NCBI GenBank assembly: GCA_031431875.1
Contig: JANPEF010000116.1
Coordinates: forward strand, 1 to 37,697
From: Candidatus Eiseniibacteriota bacterium
GTDB taxonomy: Bacteria; Eisenbacteria; RBG-16-71-46; DASYSL01
Direction of reading: 5' to 3'
DNA: 37,697 bases
In this document: positions 3,089 through 25,060 of the stretch, one piece after another
Layout: each line of letters begins with the position of its first letter
How positions within the stretch are numbered: position 1 is the stretch's first letter
Program-made: the position numbers and the translations under genes
Notes under the pieces: generated by a model
What the model saw: the letters and a program-made list of their open reading frames with translations, nothing else
Told to the model about the DNA's origin: nothing
Database searches by the model: none

Positions 3089-4480
3089 CTAAGCCGCCTT
3101 TGCCGGCTCCCCCTCCGGGCCGGGTGGCCGCGACGAAGACTCGGCGTGACGTTGTGGCAGCCGCGCCGACAGCAGGAACGCCGCACCCGCCGCCACCAGC
3201 GCCGCCGCGAAGACGACCAGCGGCCCCGTCCAGTCCGCCAGCACGCCCGCCAGCGCCGGCAGCAACATGAACGGTCCCAGGAACGAGTTCATGAGCCCGA
3301 CGTACGATGGCCGGCGCGCCGCCGGCGCGATGGCCAGCAGCAGGCTCTGGTAACCGATATTGGTGCCGCTGACCGCGGCGCCCACCCCGGCGAAAGCCGC
3401 GAGCAACAGTGCCGGCCGCGCCTCGGGCGGCGCGATCGGCGTGACCAGCGCGAGCCCGGGCGCGACCGCCGCCGCGAGCGCAACCGCGCGCATCAGGCTC
3501 CGGTGGCCCCGGTGCGTGGCGATCCGTTGCCACCACAGGTTCGAGGCGACGAATCCCGCGATGCGCGCCGTCACGAACCCGCCGACCACCGCAGGGGCGA
3601 GGGCGAGCGGCCCCAACGCGTAAAGCACCAGGAAAGGCACCGCGGCGAACGACCCGGCCAGCGCGACGCGCGTGCCGAAGAGCGCGCGGAACGCCGGATC
3701 GCGCCAGGCCACCTTGAGGTTCTCGCGCAGGTGCACACCCATGTGCAGCGCCTTGCGGCTGATCTCGACCGGCGGCTCGTGCGCCGCCGTGAAGGCGAAC
3801 GCTCCGGCGCCGATGAACAGCGTCGCCATGCCGAACAGGATGCCGTAGCGCAGCGAGAAGCCGGGCAGGGTCAGGATGGACTGGATGAGGAAGCCACACC
3901 CCACCGCCAGCAGGCCGCCGAAGAACAGGCGATAGGCCCACATGCGAGCATGCCATTCCATCGGGATCGTGCGCCCCACGACGTCGTAGAACGATACCGC
4001 CGAGAATCCGCCGGCGAAGGCGAAGCACGAGAACGTGGCGAAGAAGATCGCCAGCGTGACCCCGGGCGCTCGATCACCGACGAACCAGATCGCGAGCGTC
4101 GTGACGACCAGGCCCGCCACGCGCACGTAAACCATCGCCCGATACAGCGGCAGGCGGCGACGGCGACTCTCGACGAAGGCGATGGTCAGGATCTGCGGCA
4201 GGTACCAGCCGGCTTCCACCAGTGAAACGGCCAGCCCGACGATGCCGCTGCTGTGGGTCAGCCCGCTGACGAACAGGGCGAGGATCGTCGCCGCCTCGAT
4301 GAACGTCTCGCCGACATTGAACAACACGCCGTTCCAGACGGTCAGCCGGAAGTTGCGGCGCGCCGCGGCCGCGGAGTCGAACGGCGGTGCGGCCGGCGGC
4401 GGCCCGGGCGGCGGAGGTTCGACCCCAAACGAGGAACCCCCGGCCGACGGGCCGGGGGTCTCGGACTGCGTCGACCGCAA
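3089..4480 (-). CDS. MFS transporter
   Basis: About 12 hydrophobic segments with RRNF..., YLPQI and RRPSYVGL. The start is probably TTG 4480, just after the upstream stop; the track start at 4618 overlaps the upstream gene. Confidence 0.85.
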   Translation of the reverse strand: MRSTQSETPGPSAGGSSFGVEPPPPGPPPAAPPFDSAAAARRNFRLTVWNGVLFNVGETFIEAATILALFVSGLTHSSGIVGLAVSLVEAGWYLPQILTIAFVESRRRRLPLYRAMVYVRVAGLVVTTLAIWFVGDRAPGVTLAIFFATFSCFAFAGGFSAVSFYDVVGRTIPMEWHARMWAYRLFFGGLLAVGCGFLIQSILTLPGFSLRYGILFGMATLFIGAGAFAFTAAHEPPVEISRKALHMGVHLRENLKVAWRDPAFRALFGTRVALAGSFAAVPFLVLYALGPLALAPAVVGGFVTARIAGFVASNLWWQRIATHRGHRSLMRAVALAAAVAPGLALVTPIAPPEARPALLLAAFAGVGAAVSGTNIGYQSLLLAIAPAARRPSYVGLMNSFLGPFMLLPALAGVLADWTGPLVVFAAALVAAGAAFLLSARLPQRHAESSSRPPGPEGEPAKAA

Positions 4481-10800: not shown

Positions 10801-11346
10801 ATGGCGTACGAAGCGAAGACCACGAAGACGAAGGCGAGCGTGACCGAGTTCATCGCGCAGCAGCCGCGCGAGGAGACCCGTCGCGACTGCGCGACGCTGG
10901 TGAAGATGATGAAGCGGATCACCGGCGAACCCGCGGCGATGTGGGGCCCGAGCATCGTCGGCTTCGGGACGTACTCGTACGTCTACGCCAGCGGGCACAG
11001 CGGCGACTGGCCGCTGGCCGCGTTCTCGCCGCGCAAGCAGGACCTCACGATCTACGTCCTGCAGGGCTTCGCGGGCGCCCCGGCGCTGGTGAAGAAGCTG
11101 GGGAAGATCAGGACGGGCAAGGTCTGCCTCTACCTGAAATCGCTCGCCGACGTCGACCAGGTGGCGCTCGAGGAACTGATCACGCGGTCGGTCGAATACG
11201 TGCGTGAGCGTTATCCCGTGGTGAAGGCGGTGAAGGCGGTGAAGGCGAAGAAGGCGGCGAAGGCGGCGCCGATCAAGAAGGCCGCGAAGAAGCGCGCCGT
11301 CAGGAAGGTCGCGAAGTCGGCCGCGCCTCGAGCTGGGAAACGCTGA
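10801..11346 (+). CDS. DUF1801 domain protein with Lys/Ala-rich tail
   Basis: MWGPSIVGFG.Y.Y.Y.SG..G.W, FSPRK and GK.CLY.K.L.DVD motifs. Confidence 0.88.
   Translation: MAYEAKTTKTKASVTEFIAQQPREETRRDCATLVKMMKRITGEPAAMWGPSIVGFGTYSYVYASGHSGDWPLAAFSPRKQDLTIYVLQGFAGAPALVKKLGKIRTGKVCLYLKSLADVDQVALEELITRSVEYVRERYPVVKAVKAVKAKKAAKAAPIKKAAKKRAVRKVAKSAAPRAGKR
11221..11247 (+). repeat. 9-bp tandem repeat (GTGAAGGCG)x3
   Basis: Read directly; encodes VKA x3 at the start of the basic tail. Confidence 0.85.
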
Positions 11347-12433
11347 GCGAGGCGCTGTCGAGCCGACGCTTGAGCCCGTTGAATCTGGAGAACGGGACTC
11401 GCCGCTCGTGCTGCAATCGACCCACGACAATGCCGCGCCCGATCTCCTGAGAATCCGAAAACACTTCGATCGACTTCTCGCTGTGGGGCCCTGAGTCGAG
11501 GAACCGCAACCAGTCGGTCATTGGAACGAGAAAGTCCCGGGCCCAGTCGTTTGCCTCCTGCTCCTGACTGGAGTCTCCTCCTGCCTCCTTGCCTTCGACG
11601 AAGACAGTCCCCCGCGGATGAAGCACGAGATGCGCCGCCTCGTGAAACAACGTGAACCAGAGGTGGTCGTCGCTGCCGTACCGCAGACTGAGCTGAAGGA
11701 CGGCGCGCCGGGACCCCACCCAATGTGTGGCTCCGCTGACCCGGCACCCTGGTAGTTCCGGAACGATCGCGAGCACGACACCCGCGCTCGCAAACAGGTC
11801 CGAGACCATCGGAATCGCCTGCGCAGGATCGAGACGCGTGCACGCCCTGACTTCCTGCAGAACCTGGCGAAACCTGGGCGCGTCGAACTCTTCCACGTGG
11901 CGCCGGTCACACACCATTCGACCCGCCTGCAACCAGGTCATGAGCGCGAACTCGTCGATCTCGAAGGCCCGATGCGCCCGGTACGCAGCCTGATAGTCGC
12001 GCGTACACTCGCCCCACTGCTTTGGCGAGGCGACGGAAAAGTAGGTCAGGATCTCCCTGACTTGATCGCCTGGGTCCGGGCCTGGATCAATCCAACCCCG
12101 CTTCCGCATTTCTTTCAGCGGGAACTTGCGCGCCCATTTCGCATGCCGGCTGAAGACCCGATTAGCCTCCGCCCGCGCGAGAAACGCGCGATAGTTCGCC
12201 TCGCGCGCCACCCAGAACTGTGCGGGCACGTTGAAGACGCTCTCGAGTTGGAGCGCGGTCTCGGGAGTGATTGCGGCCTTTCCATGAATGATCTCGCTGA
12301 TCGTCTTCTCGGGGCGCCCCATTCTCCGTGCGAGCTCGACCTGCGACATTCCCCTCTCTTCGAGGAGGTCGGTCAGTGTCGCCCCCGGAGGCGTGACCGA
12401 AGTCGGTTGGTAAGCCGATGTGCTTCTAGCCAT
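11300..12433 (-). CDS. higA: HigA-family antitoxin: XRE HTH fused to ImmA/IrrE (M78) metallopeptidase
   Basis: PPG.TL...MSQ.ELARRMG...ISEII.GK..IT.ETA.LE HTH domain, LSLRY..DD.LWFTLFHEAAH (HExxH) and QEQEAN.WA. Confidence 0.9.
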   Translation of the reverse strand: MARSTSAYQPTSVTPPGATLTDLLEERGMSQVELARRMGRPEKTISEIIHGKAAITPETALQLESVFNVPAQFWVAREANYRAFLARAEANRVFSRHAKWARKFPLKEMRKRGWIDPGPDPGDQVREILTYFSVASPKQWGECTRDYQAAYRAHRAFEIDEFALMTWLQAGRMVCDRRHVEEFDAPRFRQVLQEVRACTRLDPAQAIPMVSDLFASAGVVLAIVPELPGCRVSGATHWVGSRRAVLQLSLRYGSDDHLWFTLFHEAAHLVLHPRGTVFVEGKEAGGDSSQEQEANDWARDFLVPMTDWLRFLDSGPHSEKSIEVFSDSQEIGRGIVVGRLQHERRVPFSRFNGLKRRLDSASLSVSQLEARPTSRPS

Positions 12434-12761
12434 GGTAGTCGACGACCTCCAGCATCCGGATTCGTGTCACCCGCAACCAGTCGATTCCGCCATCCAGCTT
12501 GAAAGGAACGGGCTCGTTCGCCGGTACGAAGATCAGGCGGTAGTTCTTGTCGAGCCGAACCGAGAAGCTGCCGCTCCGATCTCCACGGAGTTCTTCGCAT
12601 CGGCCAGTCAGGTTGCGCATGTGTTCGAGGGTCGGGGCGGCGAACAGATCGTCGAGCCGCTTTCGTAACGCGAAGGCACGGTCGGCGCCCCAGGTCTTAC
12701 TCGCGCGCCGATCGTCCTGCATGTCCCGCGCCAGGCGGTCGTTGGCGAACTCGAGCTCCAA
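12426..12761 (-). CDS. higB: HigB/RelE-like plasmid-maintenance killer toxin
   Basis: GRCEELRGDRSGSFSVRL...YRLIF.P and C-terminal EVVDYH. Lies upstream of and overlaps higA. Confidence 0.88.
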   Translation of the reverse strand: MELEFANDRLARDMQDDRRASKTWGADRAFALRKRLDDLFAAPTLEHMRNLTGRCEELRGDRSGSFSVRLDKNYRLIFVPANEPVPFKLDGGIDWLRVTRIRMLEVVDYHG

Positions 12762-14314: not shown

Positions 14315-15655
14315 TCAGGCCAGCTCCCAGTCGCGGATCGCGATCAGGTCGGCCAGCTCGGCGCGGCCGTCGTGGAAGCGGTCGAGCGAGGGGTCCTGCA
14401 TGGTGTGCAGCGGGCACACGCGCGTCGCGCCGGTGCCGCTGACGATCGTCGTCAGCTCGGCGTCGCGCGCCTTCCAGCCCGAGACGCCAATGGTGGACAG
14501 GCCGTCGCCCCAGGCAGTGAGGCGCGAGCGCAGGTCGTCGAAGTCGGTGAACTGGTGCAGCCACAGGAAGCGACCGGGCACCGGCGCCGGCGGTGGGTCG
14601 CGCCGATCGAGCGCGACCGTCCACGCCGGATCGGCCGAGGCCCACACCTGGCCGCCGGCCATCTCGCACGCCCCGCGCTGCTGGTGGGTGAGCGAGGCCT
14701 GCGCGTCGTCGGCGCGGCGCACCGGCCAACGCTCGGCCCAGCGCGCCTGGGCGCGCGCGCAACGCTCGGCAAAGTCCTCGGGGCGGATCGCGCCCGAAGC
14801 CTCGAGGTAGGCAACCGTCGGCGACAGGCAGCCCGCGCGATCGTACAGCGCGGCCTCGCGCACCAGCGCGTCGGCGATGGGATCGGTCACGCCGGGGGCG
14901 AGCGAGCCGCGACCGATGATGGCGACCGACATGCGATGTCCGTGCTCGATGACCCGCGGCGGACGCAGGCGCTCCTGCGCCAGCGCGCGCCACGTGCGCA
15001 CGGTCGGGTCGTCGCCGTAGACGATGACCGCCTCGGGGTGCGCGATCGCGGCACGGTGCGTGGCGACGTCGTCCGACGGCCAGTACACCGCGGCGGCGGT
15101 GCGCGCCAGCGGCGGATACTCCTCGGCCAGCGCCTCGAGGAACAGCGGCACGGTCGTCGGCTCGCCGGCCGACACGCGCACGAGGCAGGTGGAGCGCGCC
15201 AGCAGCGCCCAGGTCAGCGATTCGATGCCCGCCCACGGGATGGTGGACGACAGCACCAGCAGCGTGCCATGCGGCGCGACGGCACGACGCGGGCCGCGCC
15301 GATCGAGCGTCTCGAGACCGCCGACGGCGCGGACGATCGCGGCGCGCAGCGCGTTCTCGGTGTAAGCGCGGGCGAAGCGCGACAGGCCCTCCTCGATCGC
15401 GCCGGTCGCCCACCCGCTGGAGCGGCCCAGGCCGTCGAGCAGGCGCGCGCGATACGGACCGTTGGGCGCGGTGAGGCGACGCATCGCGCCGACCAACGCA
15501 GGGAGCAGGTCGGCGGCGAGGCGATGATCGAGCGCGGCGCGCTCGTCGGACAGCGCGCGCCAGCGTTCGGTCACGCCGGCCGCGTCGAGCGCCGGTGGCA
15601 GCGGGGCACCGACGGCGGGCGTGGGCGAGGGCGACGTCTCGTGCAATGCGCTCAT
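14315..15655 (-). CDS. LuxC-family acyl-CoA reductase
   Basis: ATG overlaps the luxE-like stop (ATGA). ALDH-like motifs VIVYGDD.TV, HGHRMS, YDRAGCLSP (catalytic Cys) and RVCPL..MQ.P...HDG. Confidence 0.85.
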   Translation of the reverse strand: MSALHETSPSPTPAVGAPLPPALDAAGVTERWRALSDERAALDHRLAADLLPALVGAMRRLTAPNGPYRARLLDGLGRSSGWATGAIEEGLSRFARAYTENALRAAIVRAVGGLETLDRRGPRRAVAPHGTLLVLSSTIPWAGIESLTWALLARSTCLVRVSAGEPTTVPLFLEALAEEYPPLARTAAAVYWPSDDVATHRAAIAHPEAVIVYGDDPTVRTWRALAQERLRPPRVIEHGHRMSVAIIGRGSLAPGVTDPIADALVREAALYDRAGCLSPTVAYLEASGAIRPEDFAERCARAQARWAERWPVRRADDAQASLTHQQRGACEMAGGQVWASADPAWTVALDRRDPPPAPVPGRFLWLHQFTDFDDLRSRLTAWGDGLSTIGVSGWKARDAELTTIVSGTGATRVCPLHTMQDPSLDRFHDGRAELADLIAIRDWELA

Positions 15656-16905
15656 GACGTGGCCCCGTTCCCGGCGACAACGGCATCCTCGGCGTCGAGC
15701 GAACAGCCGCGCGGCTCGCTGCCCTGCGCCCGGCCCAACAAGCGGAAGGGCAGCGCGCGGGGACGAGTCGCGGCGGCGGCATCGGGCGCGCCGTCGCCTG
15801 CGGCGACGATCATCTCGGCAATCGCGAAGTCCTCGGTGAGGATCGCAACGACGGAACCGCGGTTTGCCAGGTCGACGATGCGCAGCAATCCGGGTTGACC
15901 CGGCGGCAACGGCTCGAGCGTCTGCGCGTCGACGACCAGCGCGCGGACCCACGGCGGCCCGTACTTGAGGCGTGGCGGCGCCTCGGCGAACAACCCTGCA
16001 CCCCGGTGCCCCGGGCGGAGCGTCGCGTCGTAGAACTGCGAGGTCAGCTCGGTCATCCCGTACTCGTTCACGCAGTGCGCCGCCGGCACGCCGAGCGTGC
16101 GCTCGACGCGGGCGTACAGCGCGGCCGGATCGATCGCCCGCCGCAGGCCCTTGGCGCCACCGGTGTGCATGACGCGCGAACCGGCGGGCAGCCGCACCGA
16201 CCATCCGCTGCGCTCGACCACGCCGAGGAAGCGATCGAGCGCCAGGTCGGCGCCGAACAGGCATACGCCGCGCCCGGCCTCGGTCGCGGCCTCGCAGGCG
16301 CGGGCCAGGCCCTCGGCATCGAGCGCCGCGGCGTCGGGGCCCGCAGGCGGGCCGGGTGCCAGGTAGTGGCGGGGCTCCTCGGCGAACAGCTCGGCCCCGA
16401 GGACCTCGACCATGTGCCACAACGAGGAGTGGGGCGCGTCGTCGGCGGACGGGCCGAGGACCAGCGGCACCAGGTCGGTGGTCCGCCCGGGCGCGAGTTC
16501 GGGCAGCACGAAGGCGCGGAACGTGGGCAGGAGCGACGCATGGTAGAGTGCCAGCGCGTCGGCGGAGAGCGCATGCTCGCCCTGGCGCCGCCCGCCGGTC
16601 GTGGTGCCCGACGTGCGGAAAGTGCGCGCCGGCTCGGGCGTGCGTCCGTCCTCGTCGCAGATCAGCCGGGCATCCTTGAAGGCCTGCACGGGGACGGCTG
16701 GAATCTCGCTCCAGGTGCGCAGCCGCTGCGGCAGCGCGCCACGGCGCTGGCAGTAGGCGCGATACGGGGCGAGCGCCTCGTACTGCCAGGCGAAGACACG
16801 CAGGGCCAGTCGGTCGAATGCGGCTTCATCCGCGGGCGCGTCGATTCCACGGGCGAAGAACGCGGCGAGATCACGATCGAGTTCGGCGGGAGAAGGCGCG
16901 GACAT
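15652..16905 (-). CDS. LuxE-family acyl-protein synthetase
   Basis: IPAVPV.AFK, FRTSGTT, TGG.KG, NEYGMTEL.SQ.Y, DLAN.GSV..I.TED and terminal GR...EPRGCS. Confidence 0.9.
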   Translation of the reverse strand: MSAPSPAELDRDLAAFFARGIDAPADEAAFDRLALRVFAWQYEALAPYRAYCQRRGALPQRLRTWSEIPAVPVQAFKDARLICDEDGRTPEPARTFRTSGTTTGGRRQGEHALSADALALYHASLLPTFRAFVLPELAPGRTTDLVPLVLGPSADDAPHSSLWHMVEVLGAELFAEEPRHYLAPGPPAGPDAAALDAEGLARACEAATEAGRGVCLFGADLALDRFLGVVERSGWSVRLPAGSRVMHTGGAKGLRRAIDPAALYARVERTLGVPAAHCVNEYGMTELTSQFYDATLRPGHRGAGLFAEAPPRLKYGPPWVRALVVDAQTLEPLPPGQPGLLRIVDLANRGSVVAILTEDFAIAEMIVAAGDGAPDAAAATRPRALPFRLLGRAQGSEPRGCSLDAEDAVVAGNGATS

Positions 16906-16935: not shown

Positions 16936-18345
16936 TTGGAACGAGACTTGGGCGACTACGAACTGCAGTTCCTCGGCGCGGCGCGGACCGTGACCGGCTC
17001 GAAATACCTGATCCGCGCGGGCGGCACGACGGTCCTCGTCGACTGCGGCCTCTTCCAGGGCTTCAAGGAACTGCGGCTGCGCAACTGGGACGCGCTTCCC
17101 ATCGATCCGGCCACCATCGACCACGTGGTCCTCACCCACGCGCACATCGACCACACCGGGTCCCTGCCGCGCCTCGTCGCCCAGGGTTTCGCCGGCACGG
17201 TGTGGACGACGGCGGCGACCCAGGAACTGTGCGACCTCATGCTCAAGGACAGCGCGCACCTGCAGGAGGAAGAGGCCGAGTACGCGAACCGGCGCGGCTA
17301 CTCCCGGCACAAGCCGGCGCTGCCGCTGTACCGCATGGTCGATGCCGAGAAGGCGCTCGAGTTGTTCCACGCCGTCGCGTACGGCGTTCGCACCCGCCTG
17401 TCGGACACCGTCGAGATCGTGTTCCATCCCGCCGGCCACATCCTGGGATCGGCGATCGTCGAGGTCGTGCTCAAGAAGGGCGATGTGACCCGAACCATCG
17501 TGTTCTCCGGCGACCTCGGGCGCTATGACGCGGTGTTGATGAAAGACCCGGTCGCGATTCCGCCTTCGGCGGATTATCTCGTCGTCGAGTCGACCTATGG
17601 CAACCGCGAGCACGAGGACAAGGACCCGCGTCCGCACTTCAAGGCGCTGATCGAGCGCATCGTTCGCGACAAGGGCGTGCTGCTGGTGCCGGCGTTCGCG
17701 GTCGGGCGCACGCAGGACATCCTGCTGCTGCTCAAGGAGGGGATGGCGCACGGCGACTTCCCGATCGTCCCGGTGCACCTCGACAGTCCCATGGCGATCG
17801 ACGCGACCGAGATCTACTGCCGTCACGCCGACGAGCAGCGCGTCCAGCACGTCCACAGCGGCGACAAGGGCTGCGCCCAGTACTTCGGCGAGCTGAAGAT
17901 CTCGCGCACGGTCGAGGACTCGAAGGCGCTCAACAAGATGCCCGGCCCGCGCGTGATCATCTCGGCCAGCGGCATGGCCACCGGTGGCCGCATCCTCCAC
18001 CACCTCAAGCAGCGCCTGCCCGAGGCGAAGAACGCTGTGCTGTTCGTCGGCTTCCAGGCCGCCGGGACGCGCGGGCGCAAGCTGGTCGACGGCGAGCCCG
18101 AGATCAAGATGCTGGGCGAACTCGTCCCGGTGCGGGCGCACATCGACCGCATCGACGCATTGTCGGCACACGCCGATCGCTCCGAGCTGGTGCGCTGGAC
18201 GAACACCATGGCGAAGCCGCCGCGGCGCGTGTTCGTCACGCACGGTGAGCCCGAGGCGGCCGAGTCTATCGCCGCGCTGTATCGCAGCACCCATGGCTGG
18301 GACGTGCGGGTGCCGGACCAGCTGGAGGTGGCGCCGCTGTTCTAG
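16936..18345 (+). CDS. MBL-fold beta-CASP ribonuclease (Ysh1/CPSF73-like bacterial exonuclease)
   Basis: GAA.TVTGS, DCGLFQG, THAHIDH, AGHILGS, FSGDLG, ESTYG, SASGM.TGGRI.HH, SAHAD and THGE motifs. Confidence 0.95.
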   Translation: MERDLGDYELQFLGAARTVTGSKYLIRAGGTTVLVDCGLFQGFKELRLRNWDALPIDPATIDHVVLTHAHIDHTGSLPRLVAQGFAGTVWTTAATQELCDLMLKDSAHLQEEEAEYANRRGYSRHKPALPLYRMVDAEKALELFHAVAYGVRTRLSDTVEIVFHPAGHILGSAIVEVVLKKGDVTRTIVFSGDLGRYDAVLMKDPVAIPPSADYLVVESTYGNREHEDKDPRPHFKALIERIVRDKGVLLVPAFAVGRTQDILLLLKEGMAHGDFPIVPVHLDSPMAIDATEIYCRHADEQRVQHVHSGDKGCAQYFGELKISRTVEDSKALNKMPGPRVIISASGMATGGRILHHLKQRLPEAKNAVLFVGFQAAGTRGRKLVDGEPEIKMLGELVPVRAHIDRIDALSAHADRSELVRWTNTMAKPPRRVFVTHGEPEAAESIAALYRSTHGWDVRVPDQLEVAPLF

Positions 18346-18378
18346 TTCTAGGTCGGGGCGACGCGTCGAGGCGCAGGG

Positions 18379-18420
18379 AAAAACACGACGGGCCGCCGGC
18401 ATCCTGCCCGACGGCCCGTT
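18379..18420 (-). terminator. Intrinsic terminator (minus strand)
   Basis: Minus RNA ACGGGCCGUCGG-GCAGGAUG-CCGGCGGCCCGU followed by CGUGUUUUU. Confidence 0.75.
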
Positions 18421-18613
18421 CGGTTGCGTTACGATGTTCCACGGTCTGACCGGGAAGACGACCGTGCCGGATCCTTGAGGGACCGGCCCGAGGCCCGTCT
18501 CCGGAACGGGACGGGACTCGAGCCGACCAGCCTGACCCCGCGATCGCTTTGATCACGGAGCCCCCGCTCACCCGCCAAGGTCTTGCATGGCTCGAAGGTC
18601 AGGCGGCCGACGC
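18379..18613 (-). ncRNA. Candidate structured non-coding RNA, about 235 nt, family not recognised
   Basis: Bounded by a sigma54 motif and a terminator. At least six complementary stem pairs and no credible ORF. Confidence 0.5.
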
Positions 18614-18623
18614 AGCAGGGTAT

Positions 18624-18639
18624 TGCGAGCACCGTGCCA
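18624..18639 (-). promoter_or_regulatory. Sigma54 (-24/-12) promoter
   Basis: Minus strand TGGCACGGTGCTCGCA against consensus TGGCACG-N4-TTGC. GG-N10-GC spacing is exact. Confidence 0.65.
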
Positions 18640-18806
18640 TCCCGCCCGGACGGGGCGCACGGCTGACGAACGCTTGACGTATACGGGGGTGGGCATTGAA
18701 TCAGCGTGAGTTACGGGCGTGGCTACGACTCGAGGATGTCACGGCGGCGTCCGGGTCGAAGCCCGCGCCGCGCCGGAACGCGGCTCCCGGGCACAAGGTG
18801 TGGCAA

Positions 18807-20078
18807 GTGCGCGTCACCGCGCACACCCGCGGCCTCGTCGCGATGCTCCTCGCCTCCGCGCTCCTCGGGGGTTGCAGCGACGCCGAGACGATCTTCGTGC
18901 CGACGGTGTACGTGGTCGCGGGTCGCGTCGCCGACCCGACGCAGAGCCCGATCGCGGGCGTGCCGGGCGCGCGGCTCACCGTCGAGACCGCGCCCGACGT
19001 CGCCGACGTGACGAGCGACGTCAACGGCGACTTCATCCTGCAGGGCGTGCCGCCCGGCACGCACCGCGTGCGCGCCGACCTCGCCGGCCACGTGAGCACG
19101 ATCACCTACGACTTCACCGTCGCCGCGAACGTGATCGATGCGTTCGTGCCGATCTTCACTCCGGCGCAGGTCGACTCGGTGCTCATCGCGCGCGGCGCGC
19201 CGGCGTGGGATCGACAGCAGGGGCTGTTCGGGCTGTTCGCGCTCAAGAGCACGGGCGTGCCGCTGGGCGACGCGGTCGCCTCGTTCACCCCGCTGCCCGG
19301 CGGCGCTCTCGTCCAGACCGGCGAGGGGGCCGACCCGATCGTGGTGGTCAACGGTGCGACGGGTGACTACCAGCTCTCGATCGCGCGGAGCGGCTACCTG
19401 TGGGACGGACCGTACGGCGTGACGCTGCGGCCGAACGTGCTCACCTTCGCGGCGCCGCGCTCGCGGCCCAACTTCAACGGCTTCGTGTTCGCCCACCTGC
19501 CGAGCGGGCCGCCGGTGGAGGGCGCTTTCGTCGCGGCCTTGCCCGCTTCCGGTGACCCCGCGGCGGGAGCGGCGACCACGAACTTCATCGGGCAGTTCTC
19601 GATCGTGGGGCTGCCGCGCGCGACGTACACGGCGCGCGTCACCGCGCCGGGCTTCCTGCCCATGCTCAGCTTCCCGCAACCGCTCGACCAGGACACGACG
19701 CTCGCGGCGATCGCGTTCACCGCCGATTCGCTCGCGGCGTGGGCCGCAGCCGGCGGCGTGGCGCCACCGACGCCCGGGCTCGGCACGATCGTGATCGACG
19801 TGCGGGATGCGGTGAGCGGTGCGCCGATCCCGGGCGCGACGGTGGAACGGGTCGGGGGCGGGGGGCGGAGCGTCGCGCAGACCGACCGTGCTCTGGCGCT
19901 GCGGCTCGACCTGCCGGTCGGCCTCCACGCCGTGTTCGCGCGCGCGCCGGGCTACACCGAATCAGCGCCGCAGGCGCAGTCACGCGTCGAGGCCGATGCC
20001 GTCACGTTCGGATCGGTGTCGCTGGAGGCGCTGCCGACGGCGCGCGGCGGCACGCGGACGAAGCCTCAGCGCCGGTAG
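18807..20078 (+). CDS. Lipoprotein with carboxypeptidase-regulatory-like (CarboxypepD_reg) repeats
   Basis: Lipobox LLGG-C. Repeated G.V.D...P+.GA.+...T+..G.F.L.G+P.G.. units. Start probably GTG 18807 rather than 18696. Confidence 0.8.
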   Translation: MRVTAHTRGLVAMLLASALLGGCSDAETIFVPTVYVVAGRVADPTQSPIAGVPGARLTVETAPDVADVTSDVNGDFILQGVPPGTHRVRADLAGHVSTITYDFTVAANVIDAFVPIFTPAQVDSVLIARGAPAWDRQQGLFGLFALKSTGVPLGDAVASFTPLPGGALVQTGEGADPIVVVNGATGDYQLSIARSGYLWDGPYGVTLRPNVLTFAAPRSRPNFNGFVFAHLPSGPPVEGAFVAALPASGDPAAGAATTNFIGQFSIVGLPRATYTARVTAPGFLPMLSFPQPLDQDTTLAAIAFTADSLAAWAAAGGVAPPTPGLGTIVIDVRDAVSGAPIPGATVERVGGGGRSVAQTDRALALRLDLPVGLHAVFARAPGYTESAPQAQSRVEADAVTFGSVSLEALPTARGGTRTKPQRR

Positions 20079-21214: not shown

Positions 21215-22645
21215 TTATAGCCGCGCCGACGGCAAGCGGACCAGCCGTCCTGCGGCGGTCGTCGCGCCCGCCGTGACCCGCACCGCGTAGACGCCGGGGG
21301 CCACCGGGCGACCCGCCTCGTCGCGACCGTCCCACGGTAGCGTCGCCTCTCCGGCCCCGGCTCCGCCGGAGCTCTCGAGCGCGCGCACGCGTCGGCCGGC
21401 GGCGTCGAGGATCGTGGCGCGGATCGGGGTCGCCGCGCTCGGGCTGGCGCCGAGACGGACGCGGATCAGGACGTCGTCGCGGGAGGGATTCGGCCATGCC
21501 TGGGCGAACGCGAGTGCTCCCCCTCCACCTGCTTCGCCGATGGAGGTAACTGCGCTGCCGTCGAACTCGAGGTCCTGCGGCGGGAGCCCCGTCCACGTCG
21601 GGCCGGCCAGCGGCGCGAGCGTGGCGACGTCGAACACGCGGATGCCCGGGCTCGCCGGCGTGCGATCGCACAGCCACAGCTCGCCGCGATCGTTGGCCTC
21701 GGCATCGGCCAGGTTGAAGCCGGCGGTCGCGTAGACGGCCGTGCCCACCGTGCCGGTCGCGCGGTCGTACGGCTTGCACACGGTGTTGAACGACGCATCG
21801 CTCAGCACGACGAAGCCGCGCCCGGCGCTCGCGGGCACGACGTCGGCGACGTCGCCGCCCAGGGCGACCTCGGTCGTCTCGATCGCGTCGACCGCGAGCG
21901 CCAGCGGATCGATGCGCACCACCCCGCCGTCGTTGGCGCCGTAGAAGCCGGTGCACCCCACGACCAGGCGGCCGCTCGGATCGACCACCAGCTCGGTCGT
22001 CGGGTTCTGGAACGGCAGCAGGATGCCCTGCACGCCCGGCGCGGCGGCGTCGCAATCGACCAGCATGTCGGTCACGGGGTCGATGACGACGACGGCGCTC
22101 GAATCGGTCGGCGAGAAGAACGCGTCGCGATCGTTGCGCTGCACGGTGACGAACACGCGCCCGCCGACCAGCGCCATGCGGTTCATCTCGGGGATATCGT
22201 CTGCGTCGGCAAAGGCCGCCAGCGAGATCGCCCCGACGAAGGCGCCGGTCGAGGGATTCACGATCCAGAGATCCGGCGAGTCGTAGCGCGTCACGTAGGC
22301 CTTCGTCGGCGAGACGACGACGATGTCGTTCGGGTTCGACCCGTTGCCGACCGAGAACTGGCGCACGAGCTGGAAGCCGTTCGCCGGGTCGAGGACGCGC
22401 ACGTTGTCGCAGCCGAAGCGCTCGATCACGTAGAGCAGTCCCTGGTGGTGGCGCAGCACGGCGTCGGAGCACACCGTCGCCACGTTCGGCGTGGCGACCG
22501 GCGGAGCGCCGAAGGCGACGCTTGCGAGGTTTCCCGAGGCGAAGTCGGTGGCATAGACGAAGCCGCGCAACTGCGCGGCTTCGGAGGTGTGTACGCCGAA
22601 GGCGAGAGCTGTTGCGATTGCTGTGAACACGAGTCGACGAATCAC
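21215..22645 (-). CDS. BtuG/YncE-like beta-propeller with C-terminal FlgD-Ig (T9SS-CTD-like) domain
   Basis: SVG.GSNP.DI, KAYVTRY and VVVIDP blades. C-terminus PNP...ILDAAGRRVR.L...WDGRD..GRPVAPGVY.VRV. The GTG start overlaps the btuB stop. Confidence 0.8.
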   Translation of the reverse strand: MIRRLVFTAIATALAFGVHTSEAAQLRGFVYATDFASGNLASVAFGAPPVATPNVATVCSDAVLRHHQGLLYVIERFGCDNVRVLDPANGFQLVRQFSVGNGSNPNDIVVVSPTKAYVTRYDSPDLWIVNPSTGAFVGAISLAAFADADDIPEMNRMALVGGRVFVTVQRNDRDAFFSPTDSSAVVVIDPVTDMLVDCDAAAPGVQGILLPFQNPTTELVVDPSGRLVVGCTGFYGANDGGVVRIDPLALAVDAIETTEVALGGDVADVVPASAGRGFVVLSDASFNTVCKPYDRATGTVGTAVYATAGFNLADAEANDRGELWLCDRTPASPGIRVFDVATLAPLAGPTWTGLPPQDLEFDGSAVTSIGEAGGGGALAFAQAWPNPSRDDVLIRVRLGASPSAATPIRATILDAAGRRVRALESSGGAGAGEATLPWDGRDEAGRPVAPGVYAVRVTAGATTAAGRLVRLPSARL

Positions 22646-24732
22646 GGGTGTCCATCCTTTCCATCGAAGCGATAGCGCAGGCCGGCGAACAACGAGCGAC
22701 CCGGCAGGGGATAGCCGCCGAAATCAAAGACCCGGCGGTCGGTCAGGTTGGTGCACTCCATCGTCAGTTCGAGCGGCGCCCACGCGGGCGCCACGGTCGC
22801 GCCCAGGTCGATCAGCGCGCGCGCATCGATCGGCTGCAGGTTCGCGCGGTCCAGGGAATGCGCGCCGACCACGTGCAGCTCGGCAAACGGCCGGAACGGC
22901 GCGTGCGCCGCGGCATGCGCCAGGCGCAACGACGCCTCGTGCCCGGGGCGGCCGGGGAGTTCGTTGCCGCGCCAGTAGGCGACGTCACTCTCGTCGCGCG
23001 TCCACTGCCGTGTGTACGACAGGTCGACCGACAGGCCCCGGGTCCACGCCGTGCGGGCGGCGACCTCGACACCTTCGATCCGCGCCGCCGACACGTTCTG
23101 CGCCACCGAGGTCTGCGCCGAGTTCTGGATCCAGACCAGCAGGTCGGTCGCGTCCGTGCGGAACGCGACCACCTGCAGCTCGACCCAGCGCGGGCCGCCG
23201 CCGTCGCGTGCGCCCGCGAGGTCGAGCCCGAGACCTGCGTCCCGCGTGGACAACTGTTCGGGGCGTGCGTCGGGATTGCCATGGACGCCGCCGCGATGGC
23301 CGAACAGCTCCTCGAGCGTGGGCATGCGGCCCAGGCGCGAGGCGCTCGCGCGCAGTGCCAGCGTGCCGAACGCGCCACGCAGCACGTCGGCCCGCGCGCC
23401 CAGAGTGCCGCGCGTGAAGCGCTCCGTGCGCGAGACCGCGGGCCGTGGCAGCGCGCCCGGGTAGGGCGACCCGGCGGGGAACGCGTCGAACGTGTTCTCG
23501 CTGCGGACCTGCGCGGTGAGACCGATGCGGCCGTCGGACGGCGACCAGCGATCCTCCGCGCCGAAGACGAGGAACTCGCGCGTGCGCGTCGGGCCCGCGC
23601 TGGGAGCGGGGATCTCGGTCCCGGGGACGTAGCGCTCGCGCCGCGCCTCGGCCACGAGTTCGAGCGCGTTGGCGGCGGGCAGCGCGACTCTCGTGAGCAG
23701 GCGTGCGCCGTCGCGTGAGGTCTGGTCGTCGGTCGCCATGCGCGAACCGGTCAGCTCGCGGGCTGGATCGTTGAAGCGGTCCCGATTGCGAACGGAATAG
23801 AAGAGCAGCGACGGGACGATCGACGGCGGTGGAGCGGCGGCGACGGAGGCATTCCGCCGCTCGAGGCGCAGCCCCGTGACCGCGCGTTCGGTGCGCAGGT
23901 TCGCGTACAGCGCGGTATTGCTGCCGGTGCCGGGCGTGCCCTGCGTCTTGTCGAGGCGGTCGTGCGTGAGCGACATCGCGACGGGGCCTGCGGCCGTGGC
24001 CAGGCGGCCGGTCCATGCCCGCGAGACGAACGCGTTGTTGGCGCGCACGGCGTCGACGTCGTCGCCGGGCTCGGCATCGGTCCCGTTGTCGTCGCGGTAC
24101 GGGAAGTCGCCCTCGCTCTCCAGGTACTGCCCGACGACGGTGAGTCGCGTCGCGCCACGCGTCGCGCCGAACGCTCCGTCGGTCTTCCGCGTGTCGAACG
24201 ATCCCGCGCCGACCGCCGCGCGCGCCCACAGTCGTCCGTCGTCGCGGGTGACCAGCTCGACCACGCCGCCGCCGGGCGCGTCGAACGCGAGCGGCGCGCC
24301 GCCGCGGTAGACGTCGATGCGGCCCAGCGCCTCGATCGGCAGGTCCGCGGCGTTGACCACGCCGTACTGCGCCTGGTTCAGCGGCACGCCGTCGAGATAG
24401 AACGCGACCTGCGACGAACTACTGCCGCGAATCGACACCGCACCGAACGAGCCCAGCCCGCCGAAGCGCCGCACGTGCACGCCGACCCCCGTGGACAACA
24501 GGTCGGCGGTCGTGCGCAGGCGGCCGTGTGCCTGCGAGACGTCGTACGACCGCGCAAATCCGACAGCGGCCCGCAGCGCAGGGTCGTCGGGGCGCGCACG
24601 CCCATCCACGACCTGCTGGACAGGCAGCGTGTAGACGGTGTCGCGATCGGCGCGCAGTGAATCAGACGCGACGGCGGCCGCAGGGGAAGCGGCGAGGACC
24701 GCGGCCAGGGCCGCGGCGAGGAACTGCGACAT
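22642..24732 (-). CDS. btuB: TonB-dependent cobalamin receptor
   Basis: Plug motifs GV.VR..GG.G...SIRGS...QV.FYLDGVP and RIDVYRG, C-terminal NLTD...YPLPGR...GLRYRF. Lies downstream of a cobalamin riboswitch. Confidence 0.85.
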   Translation of the reverse strand: MSQFLAAALAAVLAASPAAAVASDSLRADRDTVYTLPVQQVVDGRARPDDPALRAAVGFARSYDVSQAHGRLRTTADLLSTGVGVHVRRFGGLGSFGAVSIRGSSSSQVAFYLDGVPLNQAQYGVVNAADLPIEALGRIDVYRGGAPLAFDAPGGGVVELVTRDDGRLWARAAVGAGSFDTRKTDGAFGATRGATRLTVVGQYLESEGDFPYRDDNGTDAEPGDDVDAVRANNAFVSRAWTGRLATAAGPVAMSLTHDRLDKTQGTPGTGSNTALYANLRTERAVTGLRLERRNASVAAAPPPSIVPSLLFYSVRNRDRFNDPARELTGSRMATDDQTSRDGARLLTRVALPAANALELVAEARRERYVPGTEIPAPSAGPTRTREFLVFGAEDRWSPSDGRIGLTAQVRSENTFDAFPAGSPYPGALPRPAVSRTERFTRGTLGARADVLRGAFGTLALRASASRLGRMPTLEELFGHRGGVHGNPDARPEQLSTRDAGLGLDLAGARDGGGPRWVELQVVAFRTDATDLLVWIQNSAQTSVAQNVSAARIEGVEVAARTAWTRGLSVDLSYTRQWTRDESDVAYWRGNELPGRPGHEASLRLAHAAAHAPFRPFAELHVVGAHSLDRANLQPIDARALIDLGATVAPAWAPLELTMECTNLTDRRVFDFGGYPLPGRSLFAGLRYRFDGKDGHP

Positions 24733-24848: not shown

Positions 24849-24892
24849 CGTACAGCCCAGCCTCTCTCTCGCGAAGAGTCACGGGAACGCGA

Positions 24893-25055
24893 CCGGGCAG
24901 GTCTCCTGACTGAGGGCTCAACGCCGGTTCCGCCTTCCCGACCTTGCGGTCAGTGGCATCGTGGAATCGCGGCTCGCCCATCACAGTGACGGGATCGTGG
25001 GGGAATCACACCCCCTTCCCTTTTCACCCCTTGCGGGGCACCCGAATCGGATGTG
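24893..25055 (-). promoter_or_regulatory. Cobalamin riboswitch
   Basis: Minus strand carries AAAAGGGAAGGGGGTGTGATTCCCCCAC, CCCGTCACTGTGA, GCCACTG, GGGAAGGC and the B12 box AGTCAGGAGACCTGCC in canonical order. Confidence 0.95.
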
Positions 25056-25060
25056 AAGCG

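Follow-up and report, generated by a model that had tools for sequence, protein, structure and literature searches.

We report a new RNA family, without a match in Rfam and known from one family of uncultured Eisenbacteria, found in a window of 37,697 nt (the whole stretch of DNA analysed; Candidatus Eiseniibacteriota bacterium, GCA_031431875.1, contig JANPEF010000116.1) from a genome that is 98% complete and is labelled G000 here. That it is the product of a stand-alone gene of the sigma-54 type outside Rfam is supported by the absence of an Rfam family over the locus, the presence of rpoN in the genome, a promoter pattern in 31 of 31 loci, compensatory changes in its helices and contigs in RNA libraries. 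The promoter pattern, the fold, the covariation, the independence from neighbouring genes and the presence in RNA libraries were all observed. As to its function, the RNA is most likely a decoy, and we tentatively favour, from its sequence, a compact 6S-like decoy of RNA polymerase that lacks the -35 arm. We prefer this reading because the core of the RNA contains, in unchanged order, three blocks known from the central bubble of 6S, a likeness tested post hoc; it is the best single mechanism that we can offer, and it is far from settled.

The RNA gene, its promoter and its neighbours

The initial annotation of this locus had placed a near-consensus sigma54 site at 18639-18624 on the minus strand, and a transcription start near 18613. 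The site is indeed there, reading TGGCACGGTGCTCGCA, and the same +1 is predicted here. Sites of this type number one in the window, against a mean of 0.04 in shuffled sequence, and nine genome-wide, at least two of which lie within genes. The -24/-12 pattern, whose recognition by sigma54 is confirmed in the accessible part of PMC7057263, recurs at one spacing in all 31 full loci (30 distinct), with a search pattern that required GGCA(C/T)G and a downstream G and permitted two spacings. A C at -16 is found in 30 of the 30 distinct loci, although the search pattern did not require it. Among the same loci, C and T each occupy the -12 position in 13 cases and A does so in 4, so that this position (18624-18627 in the window, and its counterparts in the homologs) departs from the consensus C in 17 of 30. 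The gene rpoN, whose absence was named beforehand as an argument against the proposal, is present in the genome, together with 26 matches to sigma-54 activators, 19 of them above 190 bits; a conserved site at fixed spacing, rpoN and activators are what characterises a sigma-54-dependent sRNA gene. No dedicated activator gene adjoins the RNA gene at the examined loci.

A direct repeat is found 30-40 bp upstream of the promoter (Table 1), in one orientation in 20 of the loci in which it is matched and in the other in 4, and has eight exact copies in the genome. A sigma-54-like site adjoins only 2 of 60 genome copies of the repeat, one of which is this locus, and thus no regulon could be drawn from it. 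A similar direct repeat precedes a second sigma-54 site at G000:C113:34629. Further upstream of the repeat, several loci seem to carry what we take to be an IHF-like box.

Both flanking genes lie on the plus strand, as had been annotated, and encode a beta-CASP RNase and a carboxypeptidase-regulatory-domain protein; for the latter the coordinates in Table 1 are those of the longest ORF, and the true start is probably later. The beta-CASP gene is adjacent in 13 of the 29 loci tested and the carboxypeptidase-domain gene in 14 of 29, so the convergence on the RNase gene that had been remarked upon holds at this locus but not as a general rule. Other neighbours include a cation/proton antiporter, an ABC ATPase, an epimerase, a sorting-domain protein, an outer-membrane barrel and a GAF protein, and at least six kinds of gene neighbourhood surround the RNA. 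No partner gene travelling with it was seen among the loci compared for neighbours. Since the neighbours vary, the RNA would act in trans.

The same comparison bears on a cis-acting element, which could be a leader, a riboswitch, an RNA antisense to the beta-CASP gene, or the terminators of the flanking genes. The convergence on the beta-CASP gene in 13 of 29 loci would fit such an element, as would a same-strand ORF that follows the RNA in three loci (G008, L036 and L047) and the contig that crosses the promoter in two of eight RNA-library runs. Nevertheless, we consider it very unlikely, given the diversity of neighbourhoods, the RNA's own promoter pattern in 31 of 31 loci, the lack of overlap with the beta-CASP reading frame in the window, and bubble lengths (7, 9, 10 and 12 nt) that disrupt any reading frame. 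A riboswitch or leader in particular was rejected, the downstream gene being convergent in the long form and unrelated genes standing at the other loci.

Elsewhere in the window, a cobalamin riboswitch (24879-25060, minus strand, 114.3 bits) lies upstream of a TonB-dependent receptor gene (22642-24732, minus strand), and a HigB-like toxin gene followed by an HTH/IrrE-type gene (11300-12761, minus strand) forms a probable toxin-antitoxin pair. A LuxE/AMP-binding-like gene (15652-16905, minus strand) is divergent from the beta-CASP gene, and a 94-nt tRNA-Arg(TCG) predicted by ARAGORN at 3155-3248 (minus strand) overlaps ORFs and is probably spurious.

Table 1. Coordinates in the window of the RNA gene, its parts and its neighbours
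Feature	Position	Strand	Remarks
Convergent neighbour, metallo-beta-lactamase/beta-CASP RNase	16936..18345	+	PF10996, E 4.6e-34; outside RNA gene
Predicted RNA, long form, about 235 nt	18379..18613	-	ends predicted from promoter and terminator
Intrinsic terminator-like hairpin and U-run	18379..18419	-	12 pairs
Single-stranded linker, sequence conserved within long form	18420..18439	-	unpaired in 15-homolog consensus
Optional 3' stems P4-P6, long form only	18440..18524	-	full set in 18/31 loci
Conserved domain: P1 (closing stem), P2 and P3, joined in a three-way junction	18522..18611	-	all 31 full loci
P3 hairpin, 7 bp, 5-nt loop, abuts P2 without linker	18539..18557	-	pair types vary freely
Near-invariant 25-nt core: 4-bp hairpin (loop UGGC), 3' bubble strand of 7 nt, 3' strand of P2	18557..18581	-	
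Bubble 5' strand, variable, A/C-rich in short forms	18582..18588	-	7-12 nt
P2 5' strand, GAGCC (GAACC in one homolog)	18589..18593	-	paired in 26/26 distinct sequences
Sigma-54-type -24/-12 promoter	18624..18639	-	single site in window; predicts +1 at 18613
Direct repeat, 11-bp period, candidate regulator site or promoter element of divergent gene	18663..18678	.	matched in 24/31 loci
Divergent neighbour, carboxypeptidase-regulatory-like domain protein	18696..20078	+	PF13620, E 3.3e-25; longest ORF

A conserved three-way junction with optional 3' stems

The stretch 18379-18615 (minus strand) folds at -131.4 kcal/mol with a z-score of -4.34, and none of 200 shuffled sequences folds as well, in agreement with the structured RNA that had been proposed; the homologs folded give z-scores of -2.1 to -5.1 in nine of nine cases. 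Among the stems drawn in the initial annotation, P2, P3, P4, the inner P4 helix and the helix 18460-18466/18440-18446 pair fully, but P1 consists of two segments (18605-18611/18522-18528 and 18596-18604/18530-18538) separated by a bulge at 18529. In addition, P4 overlaps P1 by 3 nt and the hairpin at 18467-18486 by 2 nt, so that these elements compete. The 12-bp terminator with a U-tract was recovered as a 12-pair hairpin at 18419-18388 with a U-run behind it; all 15 aligned long forms retain the hairpin, but a clear U-run comes after it in only five of them. The stretch that precedes it, described as unpaired, is unpaired in the consensus of 15 homologs but partly paired in the single-sequence fold, and no complementary site near a start codon was found among its five matches.

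The 31 loci comprise 18 long forms, 10 short forms of about 135 nt, one form with P4 alone and two that run into the neighbour's stop codon. The 3' stems are thus wholly missing in 12 of 31 loci, and one further locus retains only one of them; nine of the ten short forms have a terminator hairpin directly after P1, and in the tenth the contig ends there. The proposal of a stand-alone sRNA of about 235 nt therefore stands as regards the stand-alone gene, but the conserved unit is a three-way junction of about 90 nt. When this domain was aligned over 10 distinct sequences, 93.9% of the cells pair and five pairs show two-sided change, against 33-46% of cells pairing in slid registers. The 3' region also covaries, 13 of the 34 pairs of its consensus fold (15 long forms, final hairpin included) showing two-sided change. 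The start of P4 (18510-18524) resembles a tRNA T-loop in several long forms, a look-alike that we dismissed, as the stem that contains it covaries and the motif is altered in the copy described here.

Variation is distributed very unevenly within the conserved domain. In the 26 distinct sequences P3 exchanges its pairs freely (A-U 14 and G-C 12; U-A 13 and C-G 13; C-G 14 and G-C 9), and the bubble's 5' strand measures 7 nt in 18 sequences, 9 in one, 10 in four and 12 in three. P2, the 5-bp helix that closes the bubble, shows one compensated change from G-C to A-U. The 25-nt core (18581-18557) has no mismatch in the six genomes with a full gene and is identical in 25 of the 26 distinct sequences, 20 of its 25 nt having been preset by the search pattern for the metagenome loci. 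The most conserved part is a hairpin (18581-18570) inside the two-sided bubble, which was absent from the initial annotation. A small ORF or tmRNA-like tag was rejected, the 6-codon frame of the long form being broken by bubble lengths of 7, 9, 10 and 12 nt.

A core of this kind could also be a self-contained two-state switch, flipping between P2 and two hairpins, or a ligand or tRNA binder whose UGGC loop would pair with tRNA 3' ends. In the predicted folds the two states lie within about 3 kcal/mol of each other in eight of nine distinct domains taken alone, and a double pairing would account for the lack of variation. On the other hand, homolog L034 loses the alternative fold (-2.9 against -9.4), the long form lacks a downstream gene that it could control, and the short forms end in a terminator hairpin; we regard this explanation as unlikely.

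Distribution of the RNA

The RNA is present in 7 of the 10 genomes of the window's family. Besides the host genome, which has one copy, the carriers identified by a DNA search of 61 genomes are G001, G002, G004, G007 and G008, together with G003, whose copy is truncated where its contig ends; the other family members, G005, G006 and G009 (81, 90 and 76% complete), gave no match. The exact 20-nt pattern matched seven genome records (four Candidatus Eisenbacteria/Eiseniibacteriota, one uncultured bacterium and two chance matches). In metagenomes it matched 27 loci, and model R1 gives 25 of these a score of 45.6-102.4 bits. Four loci, L025, L026, L027 and L043 (two genome-contig and two metagenome pattern matches), were set aside as chance matches. 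Relatives thus carry homologs with compensatory changes, a check that the initial annotation had suggested.

No credible homolog was found in 196 other genomes of the phylum by DNA, model, core and pattern searches, in which the genome model searches scored the best 28-150 of thousands of first-look candidates, so that diverged copies can be missed. Model R1 gave, on 141 genomes, six strong matches within the family and one in G095 at 29.6 bits, which was rejected as several of its helices are broken and it has no promoter. Model R2 gave, on 102 genomes, 15 weak matches (E 0.13-0.46), none with a promoter, and nothing credible in G005, G006, G009, G010 or G012. The sole extra match to the 25-nt core with three mismatches in 206 genomes, in G127, scores just 9.2 bits and was likewise discarded, and neither a promoter-plus-motif pattern nor a short-form DNA query brought any gain beyond chance. 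Viral contigs contain no exact core match, and with a looser pattern none of the 80 viral loci tested (of 120) matches R2; plasmids and phages gave no match to the RNA. The unpublished genome G007 enters this work as one genome in the counts, one alignment row, a single member of the set of 39 6S RNAs and one of four genomes lacking the metK site (see below), and no claim depends on it alone.

Presence in RNA libraries

Part of the stretch 18200-18900 is contained in 18 runs, 11 of them recorded as RNA, and eight of these, from six studies, were examined. The runs were picked for containing this stretch, without a DNA control run, and consist of assembled contigs without strand or end information. 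Within these bounds, strandless assembled contigs cover the RNA locus in eight of eight RNA-library runs, among them contigs spanning 18413-18603, 18407-18577 and 18432-18603. The first of these, a 191-nt contig of run X1, matches the window without a difference; an abundant, stable RNA would fit, as this is the sole contig at 99% identity or more over 3 kb and it lies wholly inside the RNA. The contigs of X2 and X3 are also wholly within the RNA, that of X4 ends at 18591, and those of X14 and X5 end at 18604 and 18596. Altogether the contigs end at 18577-18604, short of the predicted start, in six of the eight runs (four studies), and extend through the promoter in two (X7 and X9). Contig cover is absent from 18616-18817 in four runs, which we did not count as evidence. 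The cover in RNA libraries is a hint of an abundant discrete RNA.

Comparison with known RNA classes and with protein decoys

No Rfam family reaches its gathering score over the RNA, a comparison on which its novelty had been made to depend, and weak matches appear only when E is allowed up to 10, the best at E 0.071. SRP RNA, RNase P RNA and tmRNA have no match here, and their canonical genes are found elsewhere in the genome (SRP at 69.9 bits, RNase P motifs, tmRNA). A bacterial Y RNA was rejected, since TROVE (Ro60) was not found in the genome and ARAGORN finds nothing at the locus. In the literature searched, Eisenbacteria together with noncoding RNA led to one paper, on soil co-assembly (PMC10434106), and no mention of Eisenbacteria was found among papers on the broader topic.

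The RNA resembles the CsrA sponges CsrB and RsmZ in being a multi-stem RNA in a host with CsrA genes, of which the genome has two. Unlike in these sponges, the conserved domain of this copy is devoid of GGA; its four GGA motifs all lie in the optional 3' stems and are not kept across the alignment of 15 long forms, and a sponge of this type was rejected. As a stand-alone promoter-terminator unit with a sigma-54 site, the RNA resembles GlmY and other sRNAs driven by sigma-54, among them Qrr, CrcZ and Pxr. It differs from GlmY and these other sRNAs in having no Rfam match and no dedicated activator gene alongside, and in a host in whose 98% complete genome Hfq was not found.

An alternative is a decoy for another RNA-binding protein, in which sigma-54 would raise the level of the RNA and the fixed bubble-hairpin would titrate one protein, in the manner of GlmY and RapZ; we hold it to be possible, if somewhat doubtful. 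GlmY is described as a decoy sRNA in the accessible parts of PMC7073468 and PMC4152352. Such a decoy explains the fixed core equally as well as the 6S-like reading does: the fixed 25-nt motif sits on a freely varying stem, Hfq was not found in the genome, and no conserved mRNA target was detected in the target scans described below. It leaves the 6S-like blocks unexplained, however, and no partner gene accompanies the RNA across loci. Among known partners, CsrA is unlikely, as all four GGA motifs lie in the optional 3' part, Ro60 was not found in the genome, and no rapZ turned up in a scan of 12 genes of the rpoN region and the 6 genes downstream.

Search for base-pairing targets

An Hfq-independent base-pairing sRNA, whose core would open and pair over ribosome-binding sites, with metK as one target in this clade, is a doubtful explanation. 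In G000, the genome covered by the whole-genome target scans, the metK leader (G000:C106:44809-44835; L156:4810-4836) is the best of 2943 crude start regions, with 25 of 28 positions complementary, 15 of them consecutive, and the complementarity extends into the Shine-Dalgarno sequence; 8 of 300 start-region shuffles score as well. Moreover, metK shares a gene run with rpoN (lptC-lptB-rpoN-hpf-hprK-PTS-metK-ahcY), and the site is also found in G001 and G002, with 10 nt of it in G005.

In contrast, among the 40 metK leaders read, the site is absent from the RNA carriers G003, G004, G007 and G008, so that it is present in 3 of the 7 RNA-bearing genomes, and the leaders of these three (G000-G002) are nearly identical and thus count as one case. 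The energy of the metK duplex is within the shuffle range, and genome-wide 3 of 18 shuffles reach the metK score. The net co-folding gain is -10.5 kcal/mol, compared with a mean of -4.9 (sd 3.1) over 2193 leaders, at least 15 of which do better, and the other sites with two mismatches (in G001 and G008) fall within reading frames. Exact complements of the core of at least 12 nt occur at 19 sites, the longest of 13 nt, with no excess over shuffles. The pairing with metK offers a lead in a single clade, but a core shared across the whole family cannot be explained by it.

Resemblance to the central bubble of 6S RNA

The RNA is not a member of RF00013 but may work like 6S. The RF00013 gathering score is not reached, with no 6S match at E up to 10 on 18340-18720 and no match at E up to 5 on six short-form loci, and in the reverse direction model R2 on 30 of the 39 6S loci gave a best E of 0.25, which does not indicate homology. 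The long apical (-35-like) arm of 6S is replaced by a 4-bp hairpin in 26 of 26 distinct sequences. In the 39 6S RNAs of Eisenbacteria, the bubble starts with GA(A/G)CC and a short strand rich in A and C, continues beyond the apical arm with ACC-UGG, and ends in GG(U/G)(C/U)UC. The core has these three blocks in this order, the first made up of the P2 5' strand and the beginning of the bubble and the last of the P2 3' strand, but without an arm separating them, which favours the polymerase decoy: here too a GA(G/A)CC helix closes a two-sided bubble whose 3' side starts with ACC..UGG, a likeness assessed by the post-hoc block score.

This score uses profiles of the 39 6S RNAs with free gaps, passing over the apical arm, and its figures overstate the likeness, since the blocks were chosen after it had been noticed. 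So read, the score of this copy is equalled by 131 of 7.5 million genome positions (1.7e-5), and across eight loci the fraction runs from 7.3e-5 to 2.7e-7, L029 and L033 being matched by 2 positions and the weakest locus by 547; none of 400 random block sets from the same 6S alignment was as good on five homologs. Also in favour of the polymerase decoy, the sole change seen in P2, from GAGCC to GAACC, is also the variant met most often among 6S RNAs of this lineage. Three further observations were counted on the same side: Hfq was not found in the genome, the X1 contig fits an abundant, stable RNA, and the neighbours vary. With the 5' strand blocked, the remainder refolds in nine of nine distinct domains as a single hairpin incorporating the P2 3' strand (-8.7 to -11.1 kcal/mol), a support that is weak because the G-rich core refolds whenever one strand is blocked.

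Several features count against the polymerase decoy. There are the 131 genome positions that score as well as this copy; only 5 bp separate the three-way junction from the bubble, whose 3' strand, 7 nt long and G-rich, is unlike an open promoter. The 6S bubble varies across the lineage, whereas the core is almost fixed, and a specific protein or RNA partner fits such a nearly fixed core at least as well. Finally, the RNA coexists with a 6S of canonical type in the same genome, found in the usual place after pheT-zapB-zapA (the last two being what we take these genes to be) and scoring 31.1 bits, below the cut-off. No link was seen between carrying this RNA and having a weak canonical 6S.

As regards canonical 6S in these bacteria, a match at E 0.1 is found in none of 18 genomes of genus g9, compared with 74 of 102 genomes of the order, and the 6S RNAs of the window's genus score lowest, at 26.6-36.5 bits. 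Genome G012 has two 6S RNAs above the cut-off (L126:1038-1219 and L127:1049-1225), one after a zapA-like gene and the other free-standing; inspection of the DNA upstream of the second 6S showed no sigma-54 site.

In overall architecture, the RNA shares with 6S the closing rod and the predicted refolding when the 5' strand is occupied, and differs from it in the position of the junction, the core of about 90 nt and the sigma-54-type promoter. That an arm-less RNA could act in this way has a precedent in B. subtilis 6S-1, which, when reduced to its bubble flanked by two short arms and deprived of the -35 region (variants 6S78/6S82cp), still binds in vitro, with binding about tenfold weaker, templates a product RNA and is released, the refolding of the freed P2 3' strand aiding release (PMC8876501, accessible part). 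Ms1 (PMC9130861) and CoRP (PMC11077062), as described in the accessible parts of these papers, would in turn be a precedent for lineage-restricted, structured polymerase-binding RNAs that do not score as 6S; CoRP is 516 nt and Ms1 about 300 nt long, and for the RNA reported here no Rfam family reached the cut-off. The accessible part of the CoRP paper makes no mention of sigma54 or RpoN.

Proposed mechanism and implications

Under the tentative polymerase-decoy reading, an activator would fire the sigma-54 promoter, and polymerase would bind the resulting RNA at the two-sided bubble, which, capped by the 4-bp hairpin where 6S has its long -35 arm, could be mistaken for an open promoter, with P2 stacked on P3 standing in for downstream DNA. 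The enzyme would then synthesise a short product RNA from a point 2-3 nt inside the bubble. P2 would open in the process, and refolding of its freed 3' strand would set the enzyme free. Transcription by the bound holoenzyme, whichever it may be, would thus be damped in response to a signal.

A narrower claim is that the RNA is a natural miniature 6S, that is, the 6S central bubble minus the -35 arm, brought under a sigma-54 promoter and made switchable by an enhancer-binding protein, which we consider rather improbable. Without the contact to sigma70 region 4, a miniature 6S could bind the sigma54 holoenzyme or core polymerase, and this could, if true, provide a feedback brake on sigma-54 transcription. 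Neither a natural 6S that is sigma-54-driven or arm-less, nor an RNA decoy against or under the control of sigma-54, is apparent in the titles and abstract openings of the papers searched on this subject.

As it stands, the finding brings an RNA family that is well supported in its fold, conserved in its promoter and unusually fixed in its core to a lineage whose regulation is barely described, and the short forms of about 135 nt are testable with purified polymerase, with no need for culturing. If the 6S-like reading holds, the RNA would be a natural case of a -35-less 6S, so far seen as an engineered construct (PMC8876501, accessible part), and it would, if true, offer a direct test of whether bacteria use RNA decoys against the sigma-54 system, or controlled by it.
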